A stretch of 64,000 nt of DNA from Tubulanus polymorphus. Taxonomy: Eukaryota > Animalia > Nemertea. The stretch's first letter is position 1. Every line of letters starts with the position of its first letter. Of this stretch, positions 27,175-62,000 are shown in pieces. The notes under the pieces were generated by a model that was given only the letters and a program-made list of their open reading frames with translations, searched no databases and had not been told where the DNA came from. The position numbers and the translations under genes were made by a program. The stretch is taken from the NCBI RefSeq assembly GCF_964204645.1, contig NC_134036.1:9465859-9529858 (forward strand), given 5' to 3'.

Positions 27175-27366
27175 GAGTAATAGGGATAATAGGCTTCCAG
27201 GTTAAAGGTCGAAGGGTCGAGCTCGTAAAAAAATGAAAATAACTATAATTTACAGTTGAATTAGTCGCGCACACTCCTAATTCAACTGCAAATTATTGTT
27301 ATTTTCATTTTTTACTCACTCGCCCCTTCAACCTTTAAACCTGAAAGCCTATTACCCCTATGACTT
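27175..27366. other. Long imperfect hairpin (~90-bp arms) upstream of pPolB
   Basis: GAGTAATAGGG...CAGTTGAATTAG / loop TCGCGCACACTC / CTAATTCAACTG...CCCTATGACT. Homologous hairpin at 56109-56236. Confidence 0.9.
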
Positions 27367-27419: not shown

Positions 27420-27643
27420 ATAATTTACATGAATAACATATAAATTGACAGATTTTTCAATATAAAAGTGTAAGCTCTTGTAGAATAGATATATAGATAT
27501 ATTTTAAACATTATTTCAATATTTATATTTGTATGAGTTAGATTTTTAAACATTAAAAGTGTTAGTAAAGTGTGATTGAAATAATACATGATATAAATCA
27601 TTGAACTTCTAAAATCAATTAAAAAAAAAGATTTAGTATTAAA

Positions 27644-30600
27644 ATGGAAGCAAATAAGTACTACTGTCCAACATGTAATATCAATATAGATAAATCCCAA
27701 AAAGCAAGACACAATTAAACTAAAACACATTTAGAGAATAAATTGAAACTAGAATATAAAGATGATATATTAGAAACTAAATTAGATGAAATAAAGAATG
27801 AAAAAGAAACATACAAATGTGATACATGTAATCAAACATTCAGTGATAAAGATATTATAATGAACATTTAAAATCTAAAAGTCATATTAGAAAAAAGAAT
27901 AATGATGTTTTAGGTTAAGATTATTTTGATGAAGATAATGATAAGAAACAGAAGACAATTAAAAACATAAAAGATATATTAAACAATAAAAGACCATACA
28001 TGGAAGATGTAAGAAAATATATTAATTCATTAGATAATAAAAAAGATATAGAGATTACCGAAGCATTTAAAAGTGATATTGGCCCAGCAGCTATTGAGTT
28101 TAAATTTCATAAAGGAAAAACAGAAGAAAATAAAAAAACATTTAGAAAATATGAAAGAAATAATAAAAATAATTACAGATGTTGAATATCCTAAAATAAG
28201 TATATCTTCTAAAGTAAAGTTTATAAAATCTGAAGATAAACCAATATATAATATAAATTCTCATTCACAACATATTATATCTAAACAACATATAGATGAT
28301 AAATTAGATAAATGTTATAATGAAGTAAAAACTAAAATAGAAGAGAAATATTTTGAAGGATCTGGTTTAATATTTGATGAAATAATATTTATGACTTTAC
28401 ATGTTTATAACACAAAATATAATAAGTTAACTAAATCAAAACCAATTGATGAAAATAATGTATCATATTATAAAGAACCAGATATTGAAGCATCGAGTTA
28501 TATTAAACTACCATTTAAAACTAATGCTGTAATAAATGTACAAAATGAAGATGATAAATGTTTTCTATGGGTAATAATAAGTTGTTTACATCCTGCAACT
28601 TATAATATTTGTAGATTAACTCATTATAAACCATTTGAAAATAATTATAAGATAGATAAGTATCCTGTTATAAATAAAAACATCCCAAAGATAGAAAGAG
28701 ATAATAATTTAAGAATAAATGTATTTGATTTAATCAAATTACCAAATATAAAAGGTAACAACATAAAACATTATACATTAGAACCTTTATACCTATCAAA
28801 AGATTATGATTCAAACGATGTTATAGATATACTATATTATGAGAATCATTATATGTGGATTAAACAAATAGATTTATTCTTTAGAACAGAAAGTGATCAC
28901 CATAATAAAATATATCTATGTAGAAAATGTTTACATAAATTCAGTAATGAAAGTACATTATTAAATCATAAACAATTATGTGAAAATCATGATTATTGCA
29001 AATTTGTTTTACCAAATGAAAAGGATAAAATATTAGAATTCAAAAAATATGATTACAAAAATAAAGTACCATTTGTAATATATGGAGATTTTGAATCATT
29101 AAATAAGGAACTAACTGATCAAGATAGAAAAGAAATATATTATAACAGAAAGAAATTAAATTCTAATGAAAATTATTTTTCATATGAACCACCAATAACA
29201 AATACAATTAAAAAGATTCATCAATCAGCTTTTGGATTATATATTAAATCTGATTATCCAGAACTAATTGAAAGTGAATATTATGATTATAGAAATGAAA
29301 ATGTTATCAATCATTTTTGTGACTTATTAATTGAATATGAAATAAGATTTAGTAAATTATTGAATACAAATATAGAAATTATAATGACAGAAGAAGATAA
29401 AGAAGAATTTGCGTTTGCAGATAAATGTTATTATTGTGAAAAGATATTTAATTATAAAGATAAAAAAGTAAGAGACCATGATCATTTGAACGGAAGGTTT
29501 AGAGGCGCTGCACATGAGAATTGTAACTTACAAGCTAAGAAAATTAATTTTGTACCAGTTATATTTCATAATCTATCAGGATATGATGCACATTTATTCA
29601 TCAAACCGTTATGCCATAAAATAGAAGAAATTAATAATGAAATAGAAAGATTAGATTCAAATAGATCAAAAGATAAAATACCAACTTATAAATTTAGAAT
29701 GTTAGCTAAAACATCTGAGAATTACATATCATTCCAATTTGGGTGTCTAAGATTTATAGATTCATATAGATTTTTAAATAGTTCATTAGATAACTTATCA
29801 AAATCATTAGTTGATGATGAATTAAAGATATTAAAGCAACACTACCCAAATAATGATGATTTTCAATTAATGAGATATAAAGGCGCAATTCCATATCCAT
29901 TTTATAAATCACATAATGATTTTAACATAACTGAATTATTAAAAGAACAATTCTATGATGAATTAAAAAATGAATATGTTAAAGATGAAGTATATAATAG
30001 AACATTGAATATTTGGAATCATTTCAAAATAGAAAATCATGGACAATTAGTAGATTTATATTTGAAATCAGATGTATTATTATTAACCGATATATTAGAA
30101 AGGTTTAGAGATGTAAACCTAAAATATTTTAACATTGATCCATGTCATTGTTATTCATCACCAGGTTTACCATGGGATTGTGGATTAAAATTTACAGATA
30201 TAAAAATGGATTTGTTAACCAATATAGATCAATTATTATTATTTGAAGAATCTATAAGAGGAGGAGTTTCAGGTGTATTAGGTGATAGATATTTCAATGT
30301 AAATGATGACGCTGGATATAAGTTATTATATATAGATGCAAATAATTTGTATGGTTGGGCAATGATGGAACCACAACCTTATGGAGTATTTGAATTAACT
30401 GAAGTTTTACAGAATGAAAATAATGATAAATTTGATTGGAAGAAAATAATTCTAGATATTGCAGATGATTCAGATACTGGTTACTTCTTTGTTGTAGATT
30501 TAGAATATCCTGAACACATTAAATTTAAATCTAGAAATCTAGCTTACTGTCCCGAACATAAAACTGTCACACATGAAGAATTATCAAATTACCAAAAAAG

Positions 30601-31363
30601 AATTAAACCCGAAAATCATATTCATACAGAAAAGTTAATGGTAACTCAAGAAGATAAATATAATTATGTAGTACATTATAGAATGTTAAAGTTTTATCTA
30701 AAACAAGGAATGATCCTAAAAAAAGTACATAGTTATATTTCATTTAGTCAATCTAAGTGGTTAGAAAAATATATAGATTTTAACACCAAACAGAGAACTG
30801 AAGCTAAATCTGATTTTGAGAAAGATTTCTTCAAACTAATGAACAATGCATTCTATGGTAAGACTTGTGAAAATATCAGAAATAGAAATGATATTGAGTT
30901 AGTTAGTAATGGTAAAAGAATTAGACATTTACAATCATATCCTAAGTTCATTGGTAACAGAATATTTGATGACAATTTAGCTGCAGTTAAAATGAGAAGA
31001 ACATCTATGAAATTTAATAAACCAATTTATGTTGGTGCTTCAGTTTTAGAATTATCAAAATTACTAATGTATGAATTCTATTATAATGTATTACAACCAC
31101 TTTTTGGAGAAAAACATATAGAAATCTTATATTTTGATACTGACAGTTACATATTAAAGATAAAAACTGATAACATAACTAATGATTTAAAAACATTAAA
31201 ACATCATTTTGATTTCAGTAATTATCCTAAAGATCATGAATTGTTTAGCAATGATAATAAAAAAGTTCCCGGTAAATTCAAAGATGAATTAGGTGGCGAA
31301 GAAATGATTGAATTCATTGGTATTAGATCTAAAATGTATTTTTTTGATACTGATTTTTTTTAA
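27644..31363 (+). pseudogene. polB: Protein-primed family B DNA polymerase (pPolB), intein-free allele, with N-terminal zinc fingers and an inserted HNH/EndoVII-like domain; main ORF 28073-31363
   Basis: ExoI IYGDFES, CYYC..VRDHDH..GRFRGAAH..CN, FHNLSGYDAH, FIDSYRF, YIDANNLYGWAM (motif A), KLMNNAFYGKT (motif B), YFDTDS (motif C). The N-terminus from ATG 27644 (CPTC..H, CDTC..H) is broken by stops and frameshifts, and the C-terminal thumb is truncated. Confidence 0.95.
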
Positions 31364-35989: not shown

Positions 35990-38900
35990 TAAAATTAATA
36001 ATTTAAAAATATATGTATTCGAATTAATGCAATAACCAAAGACAAAAGGTGAAAATATTAAGGATTATACATTGGAAGCTTTATATTTAACAGAATATTA
36101 TGATGATGAAAATGCTATAGATTTGTTATATTACAAAAAAGATGAAAATGAACATTATATGTGGTTAAAACAAATTGATTTATTCTTTAGCACAGAAAGT
36201 GATTTTAACAGGCATAAAATTTATCTATGTAGAAAATTTTTATCTAAATTTAGAACTGAGAATGCTTTACTAAAACATAAAGAATTATGTGGTAATAAAG
36301 ATTTTTGTAAATTTATAATGCCAACAGAAAAAGATTATAAATTGAAATTTACTAATCATAAATTTAAGAATATTGTTCCATTTGTAATTTATGGGGATTT
36401 TGAATCGTTCAATAAAGAATTAACTGATCAAGATAGAAAAGAAATATATAACAAAAAGCAATTATTAAAATCAATGGATAAAGGAAATGAATTAAATGAA
36501 GACACAACACAAGATCCGCCAATTATAAACACAATTAAAAAAGTTCATCAAAGAGCTGCTGCTTATGGAATTTATATGAAATCAAATTATCCTGAATTAT
36601 ATGAAAGTCAATATATTTCTTTTAGAGGTGAAGATGTAGTTAATGATTTTTGTGACAAAATGATTGAATTTGAAAGTGATTTTGCAAAATTATTAAACAA
36701 AAATAAAAGAATAGTTATGACAAAAGAAGATGAAATTGATTTTAATTATGCAACTCATTGTTGTTGTTGTGAAAAAAACGTTTTCATTCATTTGATAAAA
36801 AAGTAAGAGATCATGATCATTTAAATTCAAAATATCGTGGAGCTGCTCATGAAGATTGTAATTTACAAGCTAAGAAAGTTAATTTCGTACCAATATTATT
36901 TCATAATTTATCAGGCTATGATACCCATCTATTTATAAAACAATTATCGAGAAAATTGGGCGCAATTAATCAAGAAATAGAAGAATATAATGCTATGAAT
37001 GGTGTAAATGTAAGAACTATTAGCTAAAACATCCGAAAATTATATTTCATTTCAATTTGGTTGCATTAGTTTTTTAGATTCTTATAGATTTCTTGCAAGT
37101 TCATAAGATAATTTATCAAAAAGTTTAGTTGATAATGATTTTATAATAACTCGATATTATTATCCAAATGAACAAGATTTTAAATTATTGAGATATAAAG
37201 GTGCAATTCCTTATTCATTTTATAAAACACACAATGATTTTAATGTAACAGAATTATTAAAAGATCAATTTTATGATCAATTAAAAGAGGAGTATGTGAA
37301 AGATGAAGTGTTTAATAGTACATTAAATATTTGGAACCATTTTAAGATGAAAAATCATGGTGAATTAGTTGATTTATACTTAAAATCAGATGTTATGATA
37401 TTGGCTGATATATTTGAAAAATTTAGAGAAGTTAATTTGAATCATTTTAATGTTGATCCTTGTTATTGCTACTCTAGTCCTGGTTTAACCTGGCAATGTG
37501 GTTTAAAATACACAAATGTAGAATTAGATTTATTAAAAGAACCAGACATGGTTTTATTATTTGAAAAATGAATTAGAGGTGGAATTAGTGGTGTTATGGG
37601 AGATAGGTATTTTAAAGCAAATGATGAATATAAATTATTATATATTGACGCCAATAATTTATATGGTTGGGCAATGATGCAACCTCAACCATACACAAAT
37701 TTTATATTGACAGAAGTTGAAAATGATGATAAAACTGATTGGGAAAGCGCAATTGCGAGTTTAAAAGATGAAACACCAATTGGTTATTTCTTTGTAGTTG
37801 ATTTAGAATATCCTGAAAATATAAAGTTTAAAACAAGAAACTTACCTTATTGCCCAGAACATTTAACCGTAGATGATAGTTATTTAAGTGAATACCAGAA
37901 GAAAATAAAACCGAAAGATCATGTTTTTACAGAAAAATTAATACTTACTCAAAATAATAAATACAATTATATTGTTCATTATAGAATGTTAAAATTTTAT
38001 CTAAAACAAGGAATGAAATTAAAGAAAGTACATAGATATATTGAATTTTTAATCAATCGAAGTGGTTAGAAAAATATATAGATTTCAATACTCAACGGAG
38101 AACCATATCAAAAAAAGATTTTGAAAAAGATTTCTTCAAATTAATGAATAATAGTTTTTATGGTAAAACATGCGAAAATATTAGAAATAGAAATGATATT
38201 GAATTAGTAAATAATTCTGAACGATTAAGACATTTACAATTAAGTCCTAGACATTTAGGAAATAAAAGATTTGAAGATTAGTTAACAGCAGTTAAATTAA
38301 AAAGAACGTCAATGAAATTTAATAAAGCTATATTAATTGGTTCAACTGTTTTAGAAGTATCAAAATTATTAATGTATGATTTTTATTATAATGTTTTACA
38401 ACCACTTTTTGGGGAAAAGCATATTGAAATATTGTATTTTGATTCTGTAACAGCTGACACCCCAATATTATTAAAATGTAATGATAAAATATTGATAAGA
38501 AGAATTTCAGAAATAATTCCCAAACAAAATGAATGTTATATTTCATATGGTGAAAAAGAATTAATACAAATAAATGGTTTAATGGATGTTTGGACAAGAA
38601 ATGGATTGAAAAAATTAAAGAATATTATTAGGCATAAAACAAATAAGAAAATCTATAGAGTTAGAACTAAATTAGGGTTTGTAGATGTTACAGAAGATCA
38701 TAGTTTAACTAAACGAATTGGCGATGAAATAAAACCAACTGATATAAACATTGGAGATGAATTATTACATAAAAGATTTTTCCAAAGAATGAATCATATG
38801 TCATTCGACGAAATTATTGATAATATTCATAATATAGAACCTGAAACATTAGAAGAAAAAGAATATTTTATCAAAGGATTTTTCATGGGTGATGGTTCAG

Positions 38901-39964
38901 CAGGTGCGTATAATTATGTTTGGGGTAATAAATATTGTTGGTATTTATGCAATCAAGACTTAAAATTATTAGAAAGAATTAAGAAATTCTGTGAAGAAGT
39001 TTATTCACATAAAACATTTAGAATCATGGATGTTATGAAATCATCAGCAGTTTATAGAATACTTGTAAATAATCCTAAAGATTTTGCTATAAAATATAAT
39101 GATGAATTCTATATTCATGCAATAGTGAAAAGTAATACTTCAACAAAAGAAAAGATAGTTCCAGATTATGTATTAAATGCAAAAAATTATTTAAGAAAAT
39201 GGTTCTTCATTGGATTCTACGCAGCAGATGGTGCTAAAAAATTTACAAAGGATAAAAAGAAAACCTTTGCACAGATAGGAAAAGTTGCTTTATCGGGGTT
39301 AAATATATTATGTAATTCATTAGGCTTCAATATGAATATTGGATTGATTAAATCTAAAGGAAATTGCTTTAATTTAAGCCACACAGAAAAAGATTTAACT
39401 GAAGAAGTTAAAGATTTATTTGAAATATATAACCCAACAGATTATGTTTATGATTTATCAACCGAAGATGGCACATTCACCTGTGGATTTCCATTAATTT
39501 GCTTCATTACTGATGCGTACATACTAAAAATCAAGACAAATGACATAACAAAAGACATAAAAACATTAAAACATCATTTTGATTTTAGCAATTATCCCAA
39601 AGATCATGAACTATTTAGCAATGATAATAAACAAATTCCTGGTAAATTTAATAATGAATTAGGGGGTGATGAAATGATTGAATTTGTTGGGATAAGAAGT
39701 AAAATGTATAGTTACAGAACAAAAGATCATGAAGCTACAAAGTTAAAAGGAATAACAAAGCATGTGGTTGATAAACATATAGAATTTCAAGATTATATAA
39801 AGTGTTTATATAACTCAATTGTAATGAAACACAAAATGAATTGTTTAAGATCAGAAGATCACGAGATGTACATTAATGAAGTTGAAAAAACTAGTTTGAA
39901 TCCATTTGATGATAAAAGGCATATTTTAGATGATGGTATAAAAACATTACCTTATGGTTATTAA
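35990..39964 (+). pseudogene. polB: pPolB, intein-containing allele; several frameshifts and stops upstream of the intein
   Basis: Collinear with copy A: IYGDFES, VRDHDH..YRGAAH..CN, YIDANNLYGWAM, KLMNNSFYGKT, YFD[intein]TDA, GIRSKMY, KLKGI, DDKRHIL.DGI.TLPYGY*. Fragmented into ORFs 36072, 37188, 37596 and 38312. Confidence 0.95.
38444..39508 (+). mobile_element. Intein (355 aa) with LAGLIDADG homing endonuclease in pPolB motif C
   Basis: In-frame 1065-bp insert absent from copy A. Block A SVTADTPIL, block B VDVTEDHSL, LAGLIDADG motifs FIKGFFMGDGS and FFIGFYAADGA, block F YVYDLSTEDGTF, and +1 Thr. The terminal residue reads Ile (ATT) where Asn (AAT) is expected. Confidence 0.95.
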
Positions 39965-41288
39965 AATGGATCAATATCATCAAACTCGAAATCGCTATTG
40001 GCTTCTTCATTTTCATTTAATTGTTCTTGTATAATTTGTTTAGGTTCTTCCATTTCATTTTTCTCATTTAAATAACGTGTTATATTGTGCCACATTTCAT
40101 CTCGCTCTCTTTGTTTCTTTTTGTTCGTCAATTCATCAAATGGAAATATAATATCTATGTTTAAATAATTTACAATCTTATTAAAAAAGAGTTCATAATT
40201 AGTTGAATCTGTTATTCTATTATCCACATAATATCTTAATATTTGTTTGAATGTTTCTTTTATATTTTCCATATCTTCTTCTGTTAATTTAGGTTTTTCA
40301 TAATTATCGTTAAATAATAAATATAAATACATTTTCTTTTGTTTTGTGTTAAATGTTGATGGAATAATTGTTTTTATAATATCTTTTTTAGTTATTTCAC
40401 CATTTTTATTTTCTATTTTTTTCATTTTTTCAAGCCATTGCATATATTCTGGTGTATGATCTTCTATAGAAAATATTTTAAAAATGTCATCTAGATAATT
40501 TAATTTTGGTTCTACGAGAAATTCTCTAGTTTTTTCATCACCCCATAAATTCTTTTGCCATCCACATTCATTACAAAATAACACAGTACCTTCTTGTCTT
40601 AAGGTCGCATAAATACATTGTGGGCATTTTTGTTTATAATTTATTGGTGATAGATCTTCATTAAGCTCTTGGTATTTTTTTACGTTTTCTTTATGTTTTA
40701 TTGTTCTATTATGTAGATTTTAATTACTTGTTGTAATAATCAATTTACAATATTTACAATAATATGTTTTTCTTGTTAATTCATTATATTGTTTTTCTAA
40801 CTTTTCAACTGTTTCTTTATTATCTGGTAACGTTTTCTCATAATTCATTTTTTCTAATATTTTATTTTTTCTTTCATTGAATTCTGCTTCAAATTTATTA
40901 GAAATTTTTATCTATATGTACTTTACGAAATTGATGATTCTCCCAATCTTCTATATTTTCAGGGCTATATTTTATTCGACAAGGCTCACAGAAATAATCT
41001 TTTATATTATCCTTATCATAGAATAAGAAAGGTCTTTTCCAAATAATTTCAGATTCAACTTCAACAGAATTACTATTACTTTCATTACTATCAACATTAG
41101 CCGTTGCGCCATTAATTTTACACTTCTCTGAATGATTTTTAACATAATTTCTTGAGAATAATTTATTACATTTAGGGCAGTTTATTTTAGGGGGTTTATA
41201 ATTTTCATCGTGTTTTTTTCATATGTCGAGCCATATTACTTTTTCTTAGAAGTTCACCACAAATTTCGCATGGTATCTTCTCATCCAT
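39961..41288 (-). pseudogene. Multi-zinc-finger protein fused to a VLTF3 (poxvirus A2)-like late transcription factor domain; open C-terminal ORF 39961-40584
   Basis: From ATG 41288: four CxxC..H fingers (two frameshifts, one stop), then a CPQC-x12-CNECG zinc ribbon and F.QI...NY..FF.KI...L....FP...L...K.RERD.MW..I...L, matching my recollection of the VLTF3 C-terminus. Confidence 0.68.
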
Positions 41289-41357
41289 TTATTTAGGAAA
41301 AATTTTATCAAAATTAATTTTTAGTGATGAGCGGTAATTTTTTTATGTTATAAATAA

Positions 41358-42020
41358 ATGGTAGAATTAAAAGAATACAGAATATTTGTTGATTCTAGAA
41401 AACTTTCAAATTATAAATCACATAATTTACTAATACAATTAGATAGAGAATTTGAGAATTGTGTTGATTTAAAATTAGTAAATATAAGTTTATGTAACTC
41501 ATTTTACAATATATCGGATAAAAGTCTAGAACATTTAATTTTTTCAATCTTTTACAAAAAAAGGAATAAATGTTTTTTTATATATTTAAAACCAGGATTA
41601 TATAATTTAGATACATTAGCACAAGAGATTAAATGAAAAGCTCGAGCTGAATTAGGAAGTGATTCCGGATTTAGTATTAGATTTTCAAAAAGTCATAGTT
41701 CTAATAAAAGAAGGTAGATCAAATTTAATGCCTTTTACACACTTTTATATTTATTGCAATTTAATCGATCCTACACAAACATTTGATTGAAGCAACTAAA
41801 GATAAAACTTGCAATTCTAGTATACTAAATATTTTTACCATTAAAAAATGTTAAACAATTTGGAACTCAAATAAATTTTAATTTAACAGAATGTGATTTT
41901 AAACTTTGCATTCCACATTTCAATAATTTCAAATTAGAAATAAGAAATCATAATGGTTATTTAATTGATTTAAATAACTTTCCTGTGATATATGAATTAG
42001 TTATAAGATGTAGAGAGTAA
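41358..42020 (+). pseudogene. Minor capsid protein (penton)-like, disrupted
   Basis: IFVDS..L.IQL......LKLV.....NSFYNIS...YLKPGLYNLDTL, then FYIYCNLID and FKLEIRNHNGYLIDLNNFPVIYEL in downstream frames. This pattern is typical of Polinton single jelly-roll proteins. Confidence 0.7.
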
Positions 42021-42036
42021 TTTTTTCATTATATAA

Positions 42037-42297
42037 ATGAATATAACTGTTGGACCGAGTATATGTTTTGGGTTTGATTTTAAACATGAGAAAGAAATGA
42101 AATTAAACATTAATGATGTAATAACACATATTAAAAATATTGCATTTTCTAATGAAACAACATTTGAGTATGAAACAACAATAGATAATGAAACTTTAAA
42201 TGTAGAAAAGATTACTAATTTAATTAGAGAATCTTTAAGATTTTATGAATTAGTTGAACATTTTATCATCGATGATATTAAAAAAAATAATAATTGA
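42037..42297 (+). CDS. Polinton hypothetical protein
   Basis: ORF preceded by the shared TAAATG motif. Confidence 0.6.
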   Translation: MNITVGPSICFGFDFKHEKEMKLNINDVITHIKNIAFSNETTFEYETTIDNETLNVEKITNLIRESLRFYELVEHFIIDDIKKNNN

Positions 42298-42393
42298 AAT
42301 ATATACAAATGAAACTGGTATTGAAATAAATGTTGAATTAATCATTAATAAGTTAGCTAAATATTTTGAAGATAGTATTTTTTTTATTAATAA

Positions 42394-42615
42394 ATGAGTG
42401 ATAATAAGTGGATAATAACTGGATTATATAATGGAGCATTACTATCAGTTGGAACTGTTGGTTATTCAATGGTATTAAAGAAAGTATTTAAAATGGGAAG
42501 TGTTAATGTTGATAGATTTGATATCAATGATATTTTAAAATTAACATTAGCAGTTACTTTATCTAATTTAACTATTGATCATTTGGAAAAACAAAAATAT
42601 ATTCCTCCTATATAA
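42394..42615 (+). CDS. Small Polinton membrane-associated protein (73 aa)
   Basis: Intact ORF with the shared motif and two hydrophobic or amphipathic segments. Confidence 0.7.
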   Translation: MSDNKWIITGLYNGALLSVGTVGYSMVLKKVFKMGSVNVDRFDINDILKLTLAVTLSNLTIDHLEKQKYIPPI

Positions 42616-42639
42616 ATGCGTAATTATTTTACTAAATAA

Positions 42640-43062
42640 ATGGCTTCTGCAGTTATAACTATTATAGGATCAGCAATTGTTAACGCTTTAGCATTTACTG
42701 GTGGTGGTTATTTATTTAAGCATATCGATAAAAATGGGTCATTAACAGAACAAAAAAGACATAACTTAGCATTAGAGAAATACAATAAAGCTGCAGAAGA
42801 ATATAGAGAAAAGAGGCAAAACTACATGGATTATATTAACAAGGAATTATATGATCAGAAGACTTCACATAGAGATTTTCAATCAGTTGATGGTGCAATG
42901 AGTTTATATAACGCGGTAACCAATAAAGAACAATTACATCTATACAAATCTAAATTATCAGATTATTATACCCCGAGTAAAGAACAACAGAAATATGAAA
43001 TAATATGGATTTTAGGTGGAACTGTTATTGTTATATATGTAGCATATAGATTTACTAATTAG
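42640..43062 (+). CDS. Polinton protein with N- and C-terminal hydrophobic helices and a central coiled coil (140 aa)
   Basis: Intact ORF with the shared motif; IIGSAIVNALAFTGGGYLF...KRHNLALE...WILGGTVIVIYVAY. Confidence 0.75.
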   Translation: MASAVITIIGSAIVNALAFTGGGYLFKHIDKNGSLTEQKRHNLALEKYNKAAEEYREKRQNYMDYINKELYDQKTSHRDFQSVDGAMSLYNAVTNKEQLHLYKSKLSDYYTPSKEQQKYEIIWILGGTVIVIYVAYRFTN

Positions 43063-43082
43063 TAATTTTTTTTGCTAAATAA

Positions 43083-43508
43083 ATGGATGATAATATTGAT
43101 AATATTCCTCATGATATAAATAAACATAAATTAAAAATATATTTAGAAAAACAAATATTAGAATTTGAAAATGATTTAAAAGTTAAGAAGAAAAAATATT
43201 TAAAATCTAAAATTATTTATTGTTTTATTAATAGTGGTTCGGTTACAATTAGTTCTGTAATAACATTTCTAGCAATATTCAGCCCACTAACACCTTTAGC
43301 TATATCAATTGGTGTATTAGGATTAAGTTCAAGTGTTTTAACTGGTATAAGTTGAAAATTAAATATAAAAAGTAATAAAGAAAAAATTAAAACTAATATA
43401 AAAGAAATTAATAAATTAAAGAATACACTAGATTATATAATAAGTTTAAATGGTCATATAACAGTTGAAGAACAAGATAAATTATTAAAAGAATTAATAA
43501 ATTATTAA
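43083..43508 (+). pseudogene. Polinton two-TM, coiled-coil protein with one in-frame stop (43353-43355)
   Basis: Hydrophobic hairpin SGSVTISSVITFLAIFSPLTPLAISIGVLGLSSSVLTGI. The frame continues past TGA to TAA at 43508, just before the next gene motif. Confidence 0.65.
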
Positions 43509-43523
43509 TTTTTTATCATATAA

Positions 43524-44836
43524 ATGGTAGATAGTTTTCCAAAAGCTTTCCAATATTATAAATCAATTAAATATAATATTCCAGCAATAGATTTTACTAA
43601 AGATATTTCATATAGAAATGAAGTTTTAAATTCATTAATTGATTTATATATTTATGTTACTGAAAGTAATAATTTTCATGTAAAGATGGAAAATATATTC
43701 AATGTTTATGAAATTAATTTTAAAGATTTAAATGAGGCAAAACAATGGTTATTAAAATCTTATATGAAGTATTGGCAGAACCAATTAAATTTTGCTGTTT
43801 ATTGTGCAACAACAGGATGTGGAATTAGTTGGAATGATCATTTGAATAAACCAAGTTTACCATTGATGTTATCACTTTTTAGATTGCATACTTATTTTCA
43901 AATAAAATTAATATTAGATGAATTAGAATGTCCTTTACCAGGTTCAAAATACTTTAATGAACTAAATAATAATATTAATTTTTCAAAGTTTTATAAATTA
44001 TGTAATGAATTTAATATTAATTCAAATAAAGATTTTAGAGCAAAAATTGGAACAATGGGTGGATTAGGAATATTATATACTAAAGAATTTGGAAAAATAA
44101 GGACAAATTCAGATATAAGAACACTAAATTGGAATGAATTACCAAAATATTATAATAATATACAACAACAAAACAATAATGGTTGGGTTAATTTCATTTT
44201 AGAAAATATTGAAGGTTTTACTAAAGCTGGAATACAAAGAATAAATCAAACTTATTTGATATGTATTTTAGGCGCTCAAGTTGAAACAAGATCACCAATA
44301 GTTGGAAATGATAACACTTCATTTGATGCGCAGAAACAATTCAAAGTATTATTTGAAGATTCCATTCATAATGATAAAAATAGATCGATTCCAGAAAACA
44401 TTGTAAGATATCAAAATTATTTAGATAAATCTCATGTAAGACTAAATTATTGTATAGGCCCTAAACTTTTAATTATTGCTAATGATTTAGTACTAAAGCT
44501 GGGAAACATAATTGGTTATAATAATCTAACTAAACTGCAACAGTAAATAATTCATTTGGGTTGAATGATATAAATAAAAAGATTATTACTGCCCCAAAAT
44601 TAATGGAAGGTGAAAAAAATAAAAAACATATTCAATCAACAGAAACTAAAACTAAGAATATTAAATTCAATAATGATTCTAAACCGGATTATAATACATC
44701 AGAAAATATTAAAACTGATAATATTCAACAGGATATAATTAAAACTGATAATGATAATAAATTCCATGAAAATACTAAATTAGCTTTAACTTGTATAGGA
44801 ATTGTAATCGGAGGAATGTTATATTTTAAATTTTAA
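43524..44836 (+). pseudogene. Conserved Polinton hypothetical protein with a C-terminal TM anchor; ORFs 43524-44546 and 44561-44836 are probably one frameshifted gene
   Basis: YWQNQLNFAVYCATTGCGIS motif. The second ORF lacks both an ATG and the TAAATG motif and ends in LALTCIGIVIGGMLYF. Confidence 0.65.
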
Positions 44837-44851
44837 TTTTTTATTATATAA

Positions 44852-46308
44852 ATGGATGTAGAAGGTGGAGAAGATATTGGAATGGATACTTTTGATGAAC
44901 CTGGCATAACTGATGAACAACAACCTGATTTTAGTGAAACAAGTTTTAATGACGGTAATGAGCCAGAATATAATAACAATTTAAATATGCCTGATTATAT
45001 TAAAAATGCAGAATCACAATTAAATCCTGAAAATTTAGACCCAGATTTAGTAAAACAAGATTTAGAAAATTTAAACAAAATACCTAAATTAGAACGTATA
45101 ATTGAAAATTCTAAATTTAACATAAATGATGAAGACGTTGGACCTTTAGCAGATAAATTAAAATTTTTAGATAATGGTAAATGGTATTATCATTTGAAAG
45201 ATGATTATTATATTGATATCACTTTTAAAAATGAAAACAAAATATTAGCAAAATCAACTTTAGACAAATTAGAACCAGGTAGAATTAAAAGAACTAGTAA
45301 TAGTAATGTAATAACTGATGTTATAAAACAAGAATTAACTGTAAATGATATAGACGTATTTAAACAAAAAATTAATGAATTATTTGACAAAATCAAAAAG
45401 AAATCAGAAACAGAAATAACTTCTGAACATAATATAACTTCCAATACTAGTAAACTTAAATCAAATAAATTGAAAAACTTTTACCGAATGGATTAATTGA
45501 TGCAACAGATCAAGAATTAGAAGATTTAAATAATATATTTTCTGTTGAAGCAATTAGAGAAATAAAAAGTATATGACTTGCATCTGATAAAATTGCGCAT
45601 GATATAAGTATAAGAGATTTTAAAATTCGAACTTTAGAAAAAGAATTAACTGATAAAAATAAAGAAATAGAACAATTAACGTCTGATTTAGATCATCAAG
45701 TAATTGATGTAATAGAATATAGGCAAAAAGAATTACGTTTAGAAAAAGAAATAGATGATTTAAAATATAACATAGAATTACAAAAAGAAAAAATTAAATT
45801 ATTATTAAAATCATATGATTATAATGTTAATAGATTAAAAGTTATTTTTAAAGATTTGTTGATAAAACCAAATTCTGAAATATCATTAAAAGATAGAATA
45901 AAGTTATTATTTAAATTAGAAGGAATAACAATTCTTTCAATTCTAACAGCTGTAACTATGTTATTTACAGCAATTGGTTTAGCAATATCAAATTCTTTGA
46001 AATCTACTCCTACTCCCAATAAACCGGATAAACCCCCGAATGATAATAATTCTATACAAGATAAAGTTAAGGATGGTTTAAAGAAATTAGCCAAATATTT
46101 ATGGGAACTATCTAAAAAATCTGCTGCAGCATTACCCGGAATTATTGCATCAATTGTTGGTTTTATATTGAAATCTGCAGGTAATATTCTTAACTTTGCT
46201 GCTGAACATATTATTTCATTTTTAATTACAGTTGTAAGTGCTATTATTTTTGGGTTAGTGAATATGATATCAAAAAGATATCAAGAAAAAGTAATAAAAA
46301 ATAAATAA
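44852..46308 (+). pseudogene. Large Polinton protein (acidic N-terminus, coiled coil, C-terminal TM segments), disrupted into ORFs 44852-45496 and 45856-46308
   Basis: Single TAAATG start, coiled-coil-like coding between the two ORFs, and EGITILSILTAVTMLFTAIGLAI...KSAAALPGIIASIVGFIL. Confidence 0.65.
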
Positions 46309-46328
46309 TTAATTTTTTTGTTAAATAC

Positions 46329-46707
46329 ATGAGTGGGAGTTATATAAGTCCTTCTAAGATTTCTAGAATATCTATGCTATTAAAGCAGAAAGATCACATC
46401 ATATAATTACTCATAATCCTTCAAATATTAATCCCGATGAAACTTTATATGTTAGAATTCCTAGATTAACACAAAATACTTTTTATGTTCCAAATAGTAT
46501 TTATTTATCAGCCGATATAAAAGTAACTGGTCATGATAATAATTGTGTTGTCGATAATGTTGGGAGATATTTGATTAAAAAATTAACTATAAAGATTGGT
46601 CCAGAAACAGTTTTCTCATTAGATGATTATAATTTATTTATGCATTATAAAGATTTATGGTTAACTAAAGAAAATAGAAATAATATGATATTTCAAGGCA
46701 TTCAATC
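46329..46707 (+). pseudogene. Major capsid protein (double jelly-roll) N-terminal third, frameshifted and truncated
   Basis: ERSHHIITHNPSNINPDETLYVRIPRL...YVPNSIYL...VVDNVGRYLIKKL.IK...VFSLDDY.LF.HYKDLWLT...R.NMIFQGIQ, matching my recollection of invertebrate Polinton MCP N-termini. Composition breaks at ~46707. Confidence 0.72.
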
Positions 46708-47207
46708 GTCCGTCGCGTCACTGTCTAATATCCGGCGTTTAACATTCAATTTCAATCGATGTTTCAGGTGAAATCCTGAACACTCGTTTATCGAGTACGA
46801 TCACGTTTTTTTCCCCGTGAAGTTTGCTATTAAAACGTTTATGCCCGATGTTTGCGAGGTTCAGGCTGTACATTGATACCAGCAAGAGTCACTTGCACCG
46901 CAATCGGTCGAATATACTCCGCACATTTATTGAAGATTTTCAATAAAAAAAAACTAAAATAAAACTGCAAGTTTCAAAAGTCTTTGCATTTTGAAAACAA
47001 CTCAAAGCTGATCGCCATTGCTTTACTAAAACGACGAAGAACGCAAATAAATACCTTGACAAGCGATGTGGCCTTCTCCCTGTACAAAGCCCTACAAGTT
47101 CAACAACGAATACGTATTTGTATTGAATATATCCGCATGTAATTATTGGGCAACCCCCTAGAATATCTGTCCCTACGCCCAATCGCACCCCCTAACCTCA
47201 TTATTAC

Positions 47208-49666: not shown

Positions 49667-52444
49667 CAGGTTCAAAATACTTTAATGAACTAAATAATAA
49701 TATTAATTTTTCAAAGTTTTATAAATTATGTAATGAATTTAATATTAATTCAAATAAAGATTTTAGAACAAAAATTGGAACAATGGGTGGATTAGGAATA
49801 TTATATACTAAAGAATTTGGAAAAATAAGGACAAATTCAGATATAAGAACACTAAATTGGAATGAATTACCAAAATATTATAATAATATACAACAACAAA
49901 ACAATAATGGTTGGGTTAATTTCATTTTAGAAAATATTGAAGGTTTTACTAAAGCTGGAATACAAAGAATAAATCAATCTTTTAGAACTTATTTGATATG
50001 TATTTTAGGCGCTCAAGTTGAAACAAGATCACCAATAGTTGGAAATGATAACACTTCATTTGATGCGCAGAAACAATTCAAAGTATTATTTGAAGATTCC
50101 ATTCATAATGATAAAAATAGATCGATTCCAGAAAACATTGTAAGATATCAAAATTATTTAGATAAATCTCATGTAAGACTAAATTATTGTATAGGCCCTA
50201 AACTTTTAATTATTGCTAATGATTTAGTACTAAAGCTGGGAAACATAATTGGTTATAATAATCTAACTAAACTGCAACAGTAAATAATTCATTTGGGTTG
50301 AATGATATAAATAAAAAGATTATTACTGCCCCAAAATTAATGGAAGGTGAAAAAAATAAAAAACATATTCAATCAACAGAAACTAAAACTAAGAATATTA
50401 AATTCAATAATGATTCTAAACCGGATTATAATACATCAGAAAATATTAAAACTGATAATATTCAACAGGATATAATTAAAACTGATAATGATAATAAATT
50501 CCATGAAAATACTAAATTAGCTTTAACTTGTATAGGAATTGTAATCGGAGGAATGTTATATTTTAAATTTTAATTTTTTATTATATAAATGGATGTAGAA
50601 GGTGGAGAAGATATTGGAATGGATACTTTTGATGAACCTGGCATAACTGATGAACAACAACCTGATTTTAGTGAAACAAGTTTTAATGACGGTAATGAGC
50701 CAGAATATAATAACAATTTAAATATGCCTGATTATATTAAAAATGCAGAATCACAATTAAATCCTGAAAATTTAGACCCAGATTTAGTAAAACAAGATTT
50801 AGAAAATTTAAACAAAATACCTAAATTAGAACGTATAATTGAAAATTCTAAATTTAACATAAATGATGAAGACGTTGGACCTTTAGCAGATAAATTAAAA
50901 TTTTTAGATAATGGTAAATGGTATTATCATTTGAAAGATGATTATTATATTGATATCACTTTTAAAAATGAAAACAAAATATTAGCAAAATCAACTTTAG
51001 ACAAATTAGAACCAGGTAGAATTAAAAGAACTAGTAATAGTAATGTAATAACTGATGTTATAAAACAAGAATTAACTGTAAATGATATAGACGTATTTAA
51101 ACAAAAAATTAATGAATTATTTGACAAAATCAAAAAGAAATCAGAAACAGAAATAACTTCTGAACATAATATAACTTCCAATACTAGTAAACTTAAATCA
51201 AATAAATTGAAAAACTTTTACCGAATGGATTAATTGATGCAACAGATCAAGAATTAGAAGATTTAAATAATATATTTTCTGTTGAAGCAATTAGAGAAAT
51301 AAAAAGTATATGACTTGCATCTGATAAAATTGCGCATGATATAAGTATAAGAGATTTTAAAATTCGAACTTTAGAAAAAGAATTAACTGATAAAAATAAA
51401 GAAATAGAACAATTAACGTCTGATTTAGATCATCAAGTAATTGATGTAATAGAATATAGGCAAAAAGAATTACGTTTAGAAAAAGAAATAGATGATTTAA
51501 AATATAACATAGAATTACAAAAAGAAAAAATTAAATTATTATTAAAATCATATGATTATAATGTTAATAGATTAAAAGTTATTTTTAAAGATTTGTTGAT
51601 AAAACCAAATTCTGAAATATCATTAAAAGATAGAATAAAGTTATTATTTAAATTAGAAGGAATAACAATTCTTTCAATTCTAACAGCTGTAACTATGTTA
51701 TTTACAGCAATTGGTTTAGCAATATCAAATTCTTTGAAATCTACTCCTACTCCCAATAAACCGGATAAACCCCCGAATGATAATAATTCTATACAAGATA
51801 AAGTTAAGGATGGTTTAAAGAAATTAGCCAAATATTTATGGGAACTATCTAAAAAATCTGCTGCAGCATTACCCGGAATTATTGCATCAATTGTTGGTTT
51901 TATATTGAAATCTGCAGGTAATATTCTTAACTTTGCTGCTGAACATATTATTTCATTTTTAATTACAGTTGTAAGTGCTATTATTTTTGGGTTAGTGAAT
52001 ATGATATCAAAAAGATATCAAGAAAAAGTAATAAAAAATAAATAATTAATTTTTTTGTTAAATACATGAGTGGGAGTTATATAAGTCCTTCTAAGATTTC
52101 TAGAATATCTATGCTATTAAAGCAGAAAGATCACATCATATAATTACTCATAATCCTTCAAATATTAATCCCGATGAAACTTTATATGTTAGAATTCCTA
52201 GATTAACACAAAATACTTTTTATGTTCCAAATAGTATTTATTTATCAGCCGATATAAAAGTAACTGGTCATGATAATAATTGTGTTGTCGATAATGTTGG
52301 GAGATATTTGATTAAAAAATTAACTATAAAGATTGGTCCAGAAACAGTTTTCTCATTAGATGATTATAATTTATTTATGCATTATAAAGATTTATGGTTA
52401 ACTAAAGAAAATAGAAATAATATGATATTTCAAGGCATTCAATC
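49667..52444 (+). mobile_element. Duplicated Polinton B segment (ORFs 49783, 50298, 50589, 51593 and the MCP fragment 52066-52444)
   Basis: Translations are identical to those of 43939-46707 apart from a 3-aa indel (SFR) and one substitution. Confidence 0.93.
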
Positions 52445-54771: not shown

Positions 54772-56108
54772 GATTCACGAGAATTAACTCAGTTCGGTAT
54801 GCTCCAGACCTGTTTACTACACGCATTATAGCAATGTAACTGTTAAACTGCATCTGAGCTGAATTCATGATTCGATTAAGTGTCAGCGGTATGTGGACTG
54901 ATTGTATCAATAGACTGAAGCTACGTGCAAGCCATGACGTATATTCATTTACGCAAGCAATTTATTGTTCGCATCAAATGAAAAACAAATTTTCAGAAAT
55001 CTGACTCAATTTACTCAGATTCAGTAAAAATTTATCACCCCATTGGCACTCAAGCTGTCCCTATCCCCCCAGACTTATACTACTCAAATCCCGAATCCGC
55101 CCGGCACTTTTTTCGTATGCCGCACGAAAACGGTTATAGAAGGATTCGAGCCCAATAGCTTATGATAAACTACACGCCTAAGTCCTTGAAATACCGTACA
55201 TAAATCAACATCCTCCTACTTCAGTTTCTCGAGTATTTCAAATTTGACAAGATACATCTGGGCGCTCACTTCGAATCCAAGTAAGTTGGGATTAATTTCG
55301 GGGGAGAAAAGGACATGATTTTGGTGGCCCGCCTCATCAAATCTTACATCATATGAAAACCTTGACTATTTACTACAAAATAACACTAACTTGTTATGCA
55401 TGAAAATCGAGATCTGGAATAGAACTCTGCTCCCCCGAGACTGCAGACCCTTTTGTAGAAAGAAGCGGCATTCTTTAAAGTCAGATTCTCCCATCCAACT
55501 TTTGGCAAGAAGCAGCGACCTAGCTGCCATGACAGTTTTTGGTAAAGTATTTAGCCCTAATGATCTCAAATTAATTTGAAAACTGATTCGCATAACTTAA
55601 CTGTGGAAATCATGAATTGGAATTGTATTTTACCTATGACCGCGTTGTGCTTGTCACGTGATTTTAGTAACGGCGGAAGTTTCGTTCCTTTACCTCGTTA
55701 GTAGTGATAGGGGATTACTATACACGAGTGGTTAAAATTGTGGTTGTGGTTAAATCCAAAATGGCGGCTGTCATGTGATCCAAGATGGCGCCCCGTTCCA
55801 AGATGGCGGCGGTCGCGTGACCCCCGTATGATTCAAGAATTGCGATGGATGCTCCCAACAGCTGTTACACGATTACTGATGCGATAACCCGCGTTCGAAT
55901 AGAACATTATACAATATTGATTAACGACTGTTATATATTTCAAATAATGCTTTTTATTTCGAACCACACATCACAATCGATTTTACGTCACAGAACAAGT
56001 GCGGGCAAGAATATTTACGCAATTGATATACATCATAGGTTGAAAAGTTATCATTTAGTTACCAGGGGGTAAACATCATCACGACGACGATCCGATCGCG
56101 ATAGAATA

Positions 56109-56236
56109 TAAGTAATAGGGAATATATTGTTTCAAGCCAAAGGTCGAAGGGTCGAAAAATAATTTCTCGCACACTCGAATTTATTTTTCGACCCTTCAAC
56201 CTTTAACTTGAAACAACTTATTCCCTATTACTCTTA
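56109..56236. other. Long imperfect hairpin (~56-bp arms) homologous to 27175-27366
   Basis: AGTAATAGGGAA...AAAGGTCGAAGGGTCGAAAAATAA / loop CGCACACTC / TTATTTTTCGACCCTTCAACCTTT...TTCCCTATTACT. Confidence 0.9.
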
Positions 56237-56290
56237 TAATTTTCATATAATAACTTCTAAAATCAATTTTAATAAAAATATGTTATTAAA

Positions 56291-56628
56291 ATGGAGAGTA
56301 AACAAATACATAGTGAATTCTTAGATAGAATCAAAGATACTACAAATGTCAAATCTGTAGATTATAACTTTAAGAAGTTAACAGAATTAACAATTCATAA
56401 GAAATATATAATTACCAACATTGATACAGTTTCTAATAAATATGGAGATAAATTAATAATTCACTCTAGAATATGAAAGATTAAAAGGAAATAAATATAA
56501 ATTCAGAATTTATTTACCAGATAGATTTCATAGGTTATCTAGTGAAGATTTAGAAGAATTATGGTGATTTCTATTTCATATATTAGGGTAAGAATAAAAA
56601 AGAGCACCATGAAATAGATTTCGAATAA
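56291..56628 (+). pseudogene. Small Polinton ORF upstream of pPolB, frameshifted
   Basis: MESKQ...FKKLTEL...KKYII.....VSNKYG.KLII...FRIYLPDRF. Preceded by the same AAAATCAATT...TATTAAAATG motif as pPolB. Confidence 0.6.
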
Positions 56629-59077: not shown

Positions 59078-62000
59078 AATAGTTAGTAGAGCTATGAAAT
59101 ATTATGAACTGTTGGATATGACATTGTAGATCTATATGATTATGAAATATGCAAATTATATCAGGGTGACACCTGAATCGAGTTTTACAGTCTTGTTTGC
59201 TTTGACTGCTTATCCCGTTGCACCGTTTAGTCAGTTTCACCCGCCTTTAATCACGGTCATTTGGGACTAATTTGACTTTGTATCCAGTCCCATACATTTT
59301 AGGTTTATTTTACATGACAAGTTTGAAAACGTTATTTAGTTTAATAATATCAGATCCAGAATTTTGAGATAAAATATTCCAGACGAAAAGGTTTCATATT
59401 TCACTCGATTCCACTCAGGTTTTTAAGTACTGAAATTAGCACCTGTCGTGAGCATTGAATAGAAAATCCAATACTATATTTAATGTATGAAGCATAAAAT
59501 TCATGAGCGAATTTTCAGCCTAAATGTTCCAATACTAAACGCCGCAACCGAACTTTAACTAGAAGGCAGAATCGTAAGTAGATAACGTAGTGTGATAACA
59601 AAGTGGCCGCGACAACCGAATCGTGTTTTTAGATGATTTCAATTCAATTTTTATGAATTTCATAGCCTTAAATTCATTTTGTTACTATGGACTTTATTTC
59701 ATTCAAAAGATTCTCGACAACTAACGGAATCTGTAAACTTATTTCAATTAAACGACCTTCGTGTTCACAAAACAATGAACCATAAACCGTCTCTAATACT
59801 TCCCAGCAGACAAAGGAATGATAGCCCGACGATTTTTCTCCTTTATCTGATGCCAATCACAAGCAATTTGACCGCCTAGCACTAACGGCTATAGAAACAC
59901 TCCGCCAACAGAAAGTCACGTGACTAAAAGAAGTACTGTCTATGCCATTAAATTGACTTCAAATTGATAAAATGTTACAAGAAAATATTCACTAATTTCT
60001 CGTATTTGCTAAAGGTCTGATTGTGGTCACTATCGCGTCGTTTGCTGCAGGTTATTGATGGTGGCAGATTAATACGCTAGATTTTATAGCATGTTTTGGA
60101 TATAAATCAGAAACTCAATTATCAGTAAACAACAATTGTTTTTGATTGGTCTGATTTAATACTAAATCTTTAAAATTTGTGTTAAGTGGGTGTATGTATT
60201 TTTCAATCATTGATTCAAATCTCGTTTATTCTTGAGCCTCCCAACCAATATGTTTTAAACAAGCATCTACATTTTTCAGATCTCGAAGACACTAAAAAAC
60301 AGTTTGTGAAATCTGGGCATTCGCAATTAGAACACGTGCTTAAGACAAGTTTTCTGAATTGATGATAGATAAAGATTGATATGATAGATGTGTTTATATA
60401 ATGTCGTTGCTCTCGAATATCTGAAAAGATGCATGTGGTCAATTGACATACAAAAATGCAGTGAAAAATACGAAATAAAGAGCACGAAAATGTGTTTACA
60501 ATTATGATTAATTATGATCAATTTGATTAATAATTACAGTCGTCGGGGGATCGTCGTATTCTCCCCGTTCCAAGAAATATGGTATTATCTAGAGTTGTTA
60601 AAGACATGGGTTATAAATTATCGAATATATGTTTAGAATATGACGCAGTAAGTGATGAAAATATTGTAACACAATTCAAACTAAATACAATCCAGGATTT
60701 TCATTATCATATGATTATATCGATAAATTCAAAACTGTAACTATTAATGCAAATGATGCTACGAGCAATTATCTCAGGTTGAGATTATTGCTCGTAGGTT
60801 TGTGTTATTCAGCTCAAACGTACATGTGTAGCTGCAGTGATCAGCGCATTTTCTGTATGCGGATGCAATACAAGTTTATAGATTAATTTGTCCTAGTCGC
60901 ACTTTTCGCGTCCTATTGATCCGCAGCAAGATTTCGTAGTAGCTAAAAATATTTGTAATGTTGATTTCCTGTATGCGTTGGTAGTTATTAATGGGTGTCA
61001 GATAAAAAACGATGTAGTAAGCAGGTTGTTGTTAGATGCGAAGAAAGAAGGACACGTTGGGACTCGACCTCACAACAACTACTTGTGCTGATCTCATGTC
61101 AACCTTTGTAGTACACTATATCTTGTTTTGCATTGTTTAAACTCGCTTAATAGTTGAACACGACAGAAGATTGACGACACCGGCCTGACTTTTTTATATC
61201 ACGTACGTGTCTTTTTTATGAATGAAAATAAGAACATACCTTTTTTATTGCGAAGTGGTGAGTCTAAATCTCGCTCGCACCAAATGGACCATTGCGCAGC
61301 GAACGCGTACACGTACACGTGGCTCCATAGGAGATTCACCGACGCCGGCCGTTAGCTCGTGCCACCATCTCGATCATTATCTTTACATCACATCTTAATT
61401 TTTTTTCTAATGGAAAGCTCCACTTACATCTACACCGCACCCACTGGAGTCAGGTGGGGGACTGAAAAATTGTTACATGATTGTAGCGAGAAATTGTAGT
61501 TTAGGAAGAAAATTACCTCAAGCTCCGTGAGTAAAGGGAAATTGGGGGTTTGAGGCCAGAAGTATGGAGTATGAGGCTAGGTAGGTTTTTGGGTTAAAAT
61601 GTTGGGTAAAATATATGGGGTAATTTTTTTCTTGGAGGATGGAAATGCAAGTAAAAATGTTGATAAAATAAAATATTTTCCAAACGTTGTGATAAATATG
61701 TTGGTAAATCGAATATATCTTTTCATAATAAATCATGTAAACATCAGAAAAAATGTAATTGATGGTGAAAAAATAAATATAGATGAAAAAAATAGATTCT
61801 ATAAAACTGAATGAAATTTATTGTGATATTTTCGCAGGTTAAAGACAGTATATTTCTCGGTTTCAGCAGAAAGGAGTACCATTTTGCTTGGTTCTAGGTG
61901 TTCCTTTAGCGGTTTGTGACATATTGTGTCAGCTCCAGTTATGTCATTTTATTACTATACCGTTATAGCGTCATTTTATTACTATACCGTTATAGCGTCT

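Follow-up and report, generated by a model that had tools for sequence, protein, structure and literature searches.

Gene starts of an animal Polinton and two groups of its relatives carry a two-part signal resembling the vaccinia late promoter

Among small integrating or satellite elements, several carry start-proximal motifs of the type used by large DNA viruses. Mavirus and the endogenous mavirus-like elements (EMALEs) have the late TCTA motif of Cafeteria roenbergensis virus, and types of mavirus-like elements carry different motifs, which were taken to indicate different giant viruses (PMC8547959). PgVV Gezel-14T has AAAATTGA (bioRxiv 2022.07.28.501842), and the pacmanvirus transpoviron has TATATA and AAAATTGA (PMC11788076). 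Here, we describe a start signal in 64,000 nt of the nemertean Tubulanus polymorphus (NC_134036.1, positions 9,465,859 to 9,529,858 of the forward strand; this whole stretch is called the window). Block 39961-46711 of the window is a decayed, AT-rich (76-80% AT) piece of a Polinton within the animal genome, whose genes start with a T-rich core followed by TAAATG. As in the virophages and satellites, the motif lies close to the start and differs by lineage. In contrast to them, with their protist hosts, known helpers and other motifs, the carrier is an animal Polinton with an integrase and the motif is of the poxvirus type. Animal Polintons might be self-sufficient viruses of the nucleus, or they might live as parasites of larger viruses.

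By gene content, the element resembles the animal Polintons/Mavericks (adintoviruses): family B DNA polymerase of the protein-primed type (pPolB), rve-chromo integrase, A32 ATPase and double-jelly-roll capsid are present in the window or in the metagenome contig L002, its 76-80% relative. The yeast replicons pGKL1/2 likewise encode pPolB and combine a TAAAN initiator with 5' poly(A) leaders made by slippage (PMC6211774), but an RNA polymerase and a capping enzyme are encoded by these replicons themselves, the upstream element is of the early type, and capsid and integrase are missing. Polinton-type elements tied to poxviruses in animals were reported by Barth et al. (2024), who found Polinton-like viruses in entomopoxvirus occlusion bodies, one lineage being a divergent member of the mavpol2 capsid clade (PMC11296320). 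Unlike the present element family, they are without rve integrase; they are set beside it by description only. In the main text of that paper, the words 'promoter', 'motif', 'TAAAT' and 'transcription' do not occur and no promoter link is drawn. The accessible text of two animal Polinton surveys contains 'promoter' not once (PMC8502044) or twice in other contexts (PMC8097293), and promoter sharing is discussed for virophages only in the accessible text of PMC10328495. A full-text literature search, with figures, supplements, subscription papers and a 2024 review in Microbiology and Molecular Biology Reviews outside its coverage, yielded no report of TAAATG or poxvirus-type promoters in animal Polintons.

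The vaccinia late promoter comprises TAAAT, usually followed by G, over the start codon and, upstream of it, several T, of which the one at the 10th nucleotide is conserved (PMC11980589); this T is thereby placed at position -13 relative to ATG. Poxvirus late promoters have a T-containing core before TAAAT(G/A) and no 5' untranslated region (PMC5294985). TAAA at -1 to +3 of intermediate promoters is read by the viral polymerase itself (PMC12917281), and the A-leader was tied to slippage on three template T (PMC6211774).

A preliminary description of the window had reported TAAATG at eight gene starts (41288 on the minus strand; 41358, 42037, 42394, 42640, 43083, 43524 and 44852 on the plus strand), and TAA is indeed fused to ATG at all of them. 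The capsid start at 46329 deviates with TAAATAC-ATG, and its gene could be confirmed as a double-jelly-roll capsid gene (81% identity to L002:5877 over 112 aa). At this start, contigs of sister copies from X1-X3 (34, 13 and 8, respectively) match the TAAATG motif, and TAAATAAATG is found in L002, so that the deviation is private to the window copy. The upstream T-tract, said to lie about 20 nt before the start, is present at all nine starts, slightly nearer to ATG: a run of 4-8 T is found within -20 to -9, mostly at -16 to -10, and T occupies -13 in eight of the nine. The start cassettes are:

41286..41304, minus strand: T core and TAAATG of the zinc-finger gene, divergent start; T5 at -14 to -10, TAAATAA-ATG
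41338..41360, plus strand: T core and TAAATG, divergent start, two overlapping TAAAT; T7 at -20 to -14, 69 nt from the start at 41288
42021..42039, plus strand: T core and TAAATG, forming the entire 16-nt spacer
42378..42396, plus strand: T core and TAAATG inside the last codons of the upstream frame (ATGA overlap)
42624..42642, plus strand: T core and TAAATG
43066..43085, plus strand: T core and TAAATG
43509..43526, plus strand: T core and TAAATG, forming the entire 15-nt spacer
44837..44854, plus strand: T core and TAAATG, forming the entire 15-nt spacer; duplicate at 50574-50591
46313..46331, plus strand: T core and TAAATAC-ATG of the major capsid gene, a variant private to this copy

The signal is specific to starts: TAA-ATG is found at 8/9 starts compared to 16 of the 249 other ATGs in 39961-46710 (Fisher 1.4e-8). 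With the base composition of the spacers themselves, the chance of at least 8/9 is 6e-9; the composition that favours it most, A and T at 50:50, gives 5e-7. When the 24 TAAATG sites of the window are ordered by T-core score, six of the eight best are starts; two true starts score low. The start homologous to 41288 in L002 (11054) has TAAATG, too. The reservation that some TAA triplets might be upstream stop codons does not apply to the initiator, as no ATG-fused TAA is the stop of the preceding gene. Upstream stops are located 15-24 nt before the window starts or, at one start, overlap in ATGA, while two starts are divergent. It is the TAA within TAATTTTTT, the T-tract motif of the preliminary description, that often represents the upstream stop (42020, 43508, 44836).

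The same signal was then sought in relatives. An alignment of the protein encoded at 43524 fetched the best 80 of 408 confirmed metagenome stretches, and the first ATG of each open reading frame (ORF) in 14 conserved families was taken as the start; counts cover 80 of 81 sources, L065 having no scorable start. Clade A comprises the window and L001-L004, clade B 17 loci with 31-43% GC, about 40% identity in the marker and a different gene order. TAAATG precedes 28/31 starts in clade A (75 of 1009 other ATGs) and 70/76 in clade B (68 of 2034), compared to only 5/224 starts in the other 58 loci, among which L057 (1/1 TAAATG, long branch) was counted. Loci tend to have it either almost throughout or hardly at all. 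In L002, all 15 genes start with TAA-ATG and 14 of them have T at -13; the integrase ATG at 7588, scored as a miss in the 28/31, is internal, and the gene start at 7141 has TAAATG. In an AT-matched comparison, TAAATG was present at 4/65 starts of other lineages whose last 20 nt are at least 85% AT, and motif-free loci with a GC content of up to 0.40 gave 1/34. Hence, the motif is real, conserved and specific to starts. On a quick marker tree (68 of 77 rows, nine shorter than 250 aa dropped) clades A and B are separated, and the motif changes 3 times compared to 18 times after shuffling. What can safely be stated is that the start signal has been kept or re-made across 30-40% protein identity.

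The T core lies at nearly the same distance in both clades. A clade B profile was built from 51 starts of nine gene families with upstream DNA of 69% AT; the near-copies L023 and L077 and the clade B X440 gene, where overlapping ATPase codons determine part of the motif, were dropped from profile and model. In this profile, T makes up 92% at -14 and 86% at -13, G and C being absent from both positions, and in clade A T peaks with 93% at -13. A model of -17 to -11 trained on clade B ranks the true starts of clade A above other TAAATG sites (33 vs 70 sites, p 4e-10). TT at -14/-13 occurs at 26/33 true starts vs 16/70 other TAAATG sites in clade A, and at 42/51 starts vs 12/62 other sites in clade B. 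At divergent clade B starts, many of which overlap by 16-43 nt or stand 14-15 nt apart, the cassette is found in 34 of 36 cases. In L007, L010, L011, L017 and L021, the marker gene and the ATPase gene are arranged head-to-head with a 22-nt overlap, and the capsid and the coiled-coil gene head-to-head 14-15 nt apart. At such head-to-head pairs of clade B, the complement of one TAAATG provides the T core of the partner.

Judged from published promoter descriptions rather than from aligned poxvirus promoters, this layout is that of vaccinia late promoters: TAAATG covers the start codon, T peaks 10-11 nt upstream of TAAAT with further T nearby, a templated leader would have no room, and a few variants have TAAAT a few bases before ATG. 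By sequence, the signal would belong to the vaccinia-type late promoter class. Two features set it apart: it is located in a Polinton of an animal genome that shows no polymerase gene, and nearly all genes of the module, the integrase included, use it. The promoter reading of the two-part signal is well supported by comparison. The preliminary description had proposed a combined terminator/promoter cassette. The promoter half of this proposal is well supported, as two clades that diverged deeply both have the two vaccinia-late parts with the correct spacing. Less can be said for the terminator half: the T-run takes the place of the late-promoter core T and is present at divergent starts, and in clade B TTTTTNT is found at only 3 of 46 gene ends.

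Probably (we would put it at about 60%), the two-part signal is a promoter of the poxvirus-late type, which is read not by host RNA polymerase II (Pol II) but by the RNA polymerase that a large DNA virus brings along on co-infection. Each gene would have its own promoter, composed, as in vaccinia, of a T-rich core at about -15 to -12 and TAAAT fused to ATG. Following the poxvirus model, transcription should start inside TAAA, an A-leader would arise as the polymerase slips on the three template T, and the mRNA would lack the T at -3. This lack would explain why the start context suits scanning poorly. With a monocistronic start for each gene, 15-nt spacers would become possible, as would starts that are head-to-head or overlap. 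The ORFs of the window block and of 85 kb of partial loci from clades A and B comprise no gene for a polymerase, a capping enzyme or a recognisable transcription factor; therefore, a helper is the simplest source of the machinery, by analogy with mavirus-like elements, PgVV and the pacmanvirus transpoviron, and the element, once integrated, would act as a provirophage. A poxvirus might be the helper, or another virus with TAAAT initiators. If this is true, virophage-like parasitism, and possibly antiviral defence, would reach chromosomal elements of invertebrates, and the motif would point to undiscovered pox-like or other large DNA viruses of these hosts. With both poxvirus-late parts present at almost all genes in two deep clades, the layout makes sharply testable predictions.

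Several points weigh against a viral polymerase from a helper. The relatives comprise only partial elements, and an element-encoded polymerase could lie outside them. Both the transcription start and the A-leader are predictions from the poxvirus model. The counts in relatives are not independent, since homologous genes recur and the loci are related. The marker tree would suggest that the motif arose twice independently, but this finds no support in the capsid and ATPase trees, which are compatible with a single A+B clade (p-AU, approximately unbiased test, 0.22 and 0.24). The integrase gene starts with the same signal and no clear early class is seen, AATAAA overlaps five of the nine window initiators, and a cytoplasmic polymerase would somehow have to reach a many-copy nuclear insertion. 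As to the helper, a pattern scan of viral contigs gave 60 loci, none shown to be a poxvirus; four of them (L090, L094, L097, L134) had at least two TAA-ATG starts, which is circular, as they were picked by the pattern itself. G001, the bin behind L094 and the best look-alike, was rejected as a shown helper: it is not enriched (43 matches vs 37 in the control), and in 18 kb only 3/20 of its starts have TAA-ATG, most having AAA-ATG. Viral contigs searched with four protein queries gave no relatives. The same layout was seen at single genes of the iridovirus-like records L090 and L092, likewise picked by pattern, and is thus not diagnostic of poxviruses. Consequently, 'poxvirus-type' names an architecture and not a partner. 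In the large-virus records L090, L092 and L094, a T-run and ATAAATG are found at gene starts, each at 1501-1523. The L092 gene has a WIV domain, and the L090 site is located beside a NIF phosphatase.

Some other explanations would do without a helper. An ordinary Kozak context can be rejected: a purine at -3 is the eukaryotic norm and is found at 77% of the starts of other lineages (57% A), whereas T stands at -3 in 90-93% of the clade A and B starts. Host Pol II might read a compact, lineage-specific promoter, perhaps with an element-encoded factor, and start either at the TA of TAAAT, leaving a tiny leader, or further upstream. This would suit an integrated many-copy element, the nuclear life generally ascribed to Polintons and the encoded zinc-finger proteins, which have no assigned role. 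We nevertheless consider it unlikely. TATAAA/TATA lies 1-9 nt from ATG, too near for a TATA box of the same gene, for which the textbook spacing is about -25 to -30 (PMC5294985); T at -3 would enter the mRNA if transcription began upstream; free AATAAA is not clearly enriched at gene ends (clade A 8/24 vs a background of 0.26, clade B 9/46 vs 0.10); and the two-part match to the vaccinia promoter would have to be a coincidence. Much less probable is that intact members encode a poxvirus-like RNA polymerase and a capping enzyme of their own and need no helper. The precedent is pGKL, where pPolB, TAAAN initiators and slippage leaders go together with an own polymerase (PMC6211774), and all relatives examined are partial elements; however, the ORFs of the window block, of L002 and of the 85 kb of clade A and B loci comprise no such gene, and the gene set is the usual Polinton one.

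The cassette could also serve the upstream gene or translation, be it in 3' processing by a U-rich tract and AAUAAA, as a TTTTTNT terminator or in stop-restart on a polycistronic mRNA. AATAAA is indeed located within -20 to +60 of 17/24 gene ends in clade A and 23/46 in clade B, but these counts drop to 8 and 9 without the copies inside an initiator or stop, and cleavage after AAUAAA would land inside the next gene. TTTTTNT, which the earlier account had linked to the T-tract, fits six of the nine window T-runs and fails in three. It is found at 10/24 gene ends in clade A and 16 nt beyond one of the two convergent stops of the window, and it is under-used in coding strands (clade A 6 vs 14.8 expected, 0/60 shuffles as low; clade B 18 vs 25.8, 3/60), yet also on the opposite strand, and it is rare at the clade B gene ends as given above. 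Stop-restart would agree with the 5/24 tandem pairs of clade B in which TAA is the upstream stop. Against this, the same holds for 0/8 window starts and 1/19 tandem pairs of clade A, and the triplet before ATG in 100 starts is TAA in 92, TAG in 1 and TGA in 0 cases, while 25-40% of the real stops are TAG or TGA (6/24 in clade A, 19/47 in clade B). The cassette is present at the divergent starts of clade B and at both divergent starts of the window, where no gene ends upstream, which means that the T-run belongs to the start. A role confined to upstream genes or translation is thus quite improbable, although the T-run may have a terminator role as a second function in clade A, which the promoter reading does not need. 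Still more remote is a role in splicing, with the T-run as the polypyrimidine tract of a cis- or trans-splice site that joins each gene to a common leader, in the manner of adenovirus late genes. Polintons and adenoviruses are related and a pyrimidine run precedes each ATG closely, but AG is missing between T-run and ATG at 9/9 window and 29/31 clade A starts, and in clade B it is found at 32/76 starts at no fixed position. Chance in DNA with 76-80% AT is practically refuted by the window enrichment (p 1e-8), the 70/76 starts in a clade with 31-43% GC, the 4/65 AT-matched starts and the 1/34 in motif-free loci.

Other start signals were encountered both in the window and in other lineages. In the window, the following feature differs from the cassettes:

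27600..27646, plus strand: another upstream class at a further pPolB copy, with an A-rich core and TAAA-ATG, no T core; also at 56291 and 56665

The pPolB starts and a small upstream gene (27644, 56291, 56665) share AAAATCAATT, an A-run and TATTAAA-ATG. This class, no more than a lead, is possibly an earlier one or may be that of another subfamily; it comprises at most two independent genes. L005 and L030 have TAAAA-ATG starts. In L006 (1370-9180; 49% GC; sister to clade A on the marker tree), TATA lies 5-14 nt before ATG at 8/12 starts, with T-runs 10-14 nt further upstream, which resembles the late TATTT and TATA of African swine fever virus (PMC5294985, PMC7163114). In a large other clade, TTGAA is found at -45 to -16 in 38/65 starts (background 0.076) and TATA at -12 to -1 in 31/65 (0.033), where the background consists of other ATGs, mostly coding DNA, and is not AT-matched. 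L041, L064, L070 and relatives, L031, L039 and L069 have TTGAA about 25-40 nt before ATG at many starts, and their TTGAA words resemble the giant-virus early motif AAAATTGA. These TTGAA/TATA signals are a lead. Tentatively, and with less than even odds, many integrase-bearing animal Polintons could be endogenous virophages of large DNA viruses whose start signals record the helper: T core and TAAATG a poxvirus-late type (clades A and B), T core and TATA an asfarvirus-late type (L006), and TTGAA with TATA that of another clade. The words would be swapped genome-wide with a change of helper, and each word would predict an undiscovered host virus.

The genes of the block and the adjoining pPolB copy are:

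39961..41288, minus strand: broken zinc-finger-rich reading frame(s), convergent with pPolB; weak zinc-finger matches only, N-terminus like L002:11054 by eye
41358..42020, plus strand: broken conserved gene, 37% to L002:565
42037..43508, plus strand: four small conserved genes (42037, 42394, 42640, 43083), of which two are broken; 67-89% to L002 in the parts that align
43524..44836, plus strand: conserved Polinton core gene used as marker for relatives; about 440 aa in relatives, broken here after 340 aa
44852..46308, plus strand: broken coiled-coil gene with a hydrophobic C-terminus
46329..46711, plus strand: 5' fragment of the major capsid gene (double jelly roll), which is broken and truncated by unrelated DNA
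36159..39964, plus strand: broken pPolB with an intein/LAGLIDADG insert at about 38444-39517 that is related to giant-virus PolB inteins

In the block, seven plus-strand genes and, after them, the capsid fragment have the gene order of L002. L002 encodes 15 genes in 11.5 kb, which include the rve-chromo integrase, the A32 ATPase and a deoxynucleoside kinase; L010, too, has the integrase and the A32 packaging ATPase. In the window, where the block ends inside the capsid gene, tblastn gave no match to either of them. The capsid model of L002:5877 (predicted local distance difference test, pLDDT, 81) matches the double-jelly-roll capsids of PBCV-1, iridovirus and mavirus (E 2e-15), while sequence searches of PDB with the capsid gave nothing useful. 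For the gene at 41358..42020, 'minor capsid' is a guess from size and place. The protein encoded at 43524 yields a confident predicted model (pLDDT 86) with no Pfam match and no Foldseek fold match in BFVD or PDB, and was rejected as a recognisable transcription factor on these grounds. This core protein (43524-44546) is widespread in Polintons, with 3144 representatives at E 0.001. The maturation protease candidate L002:9410 has no significant Pfam match.

Two features of the family might be signs of contact with large DNA viruses, both circumstantial and drawn from sequence comparison. One is the deoxynucleoside kinase of L002, for which an atlas search gave no clear origin; its gene (10343-10981) has the same start cassette of T core and TAAATG. 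The other is the kinship of the pPolB intein with RNA-primed PolBs: its closest relatives are three pPolBs (61, 48 and 45%), followed by RNA-primed PolBs, and 117 of the 120 matches listed carry PF00136, one being a named mimivirus PolB (38%). The intein is situated in the region of the catalytic motifs, and its C-terminal end looks decayed.

The block is flanked by the broken pPolB copy on one side and, beyond 46.7 kb, by other DNA including a G-protein-coupled receptor (GPCR) gene, whose nearest relatives among the matches listed are Tubulanus polymorphus proteins (61%). Protein-primed PolB is also found at 28151-31360 (PF03175, E 6e-14), the copy adjoining the block being the second one. 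Sister-copy contigs on the block amount to thousands of assembled contigs in three runs of one study, so that the element family is many-copy in its host. No hairpin pair enclosing 39961-46711 was found. End-like long hairpins bounded by AGT...ACT and related to each other are located at 27176-27366 and 56106-56237, and a first gene follows each of them after about 60-280 nt. Part of the element and the single-exon GPCR gene are contained in a tandem duplication of about 5737 bp, the two units of which (43.9-49.6 kb and 49.67-55.3 kb) are almost identical; it is either a recent duplication or an assembly artefact. Related DNA is also present at 17.6-19.9 kb, and more decayed fragments of the capsid gene are located at 60579-60742.

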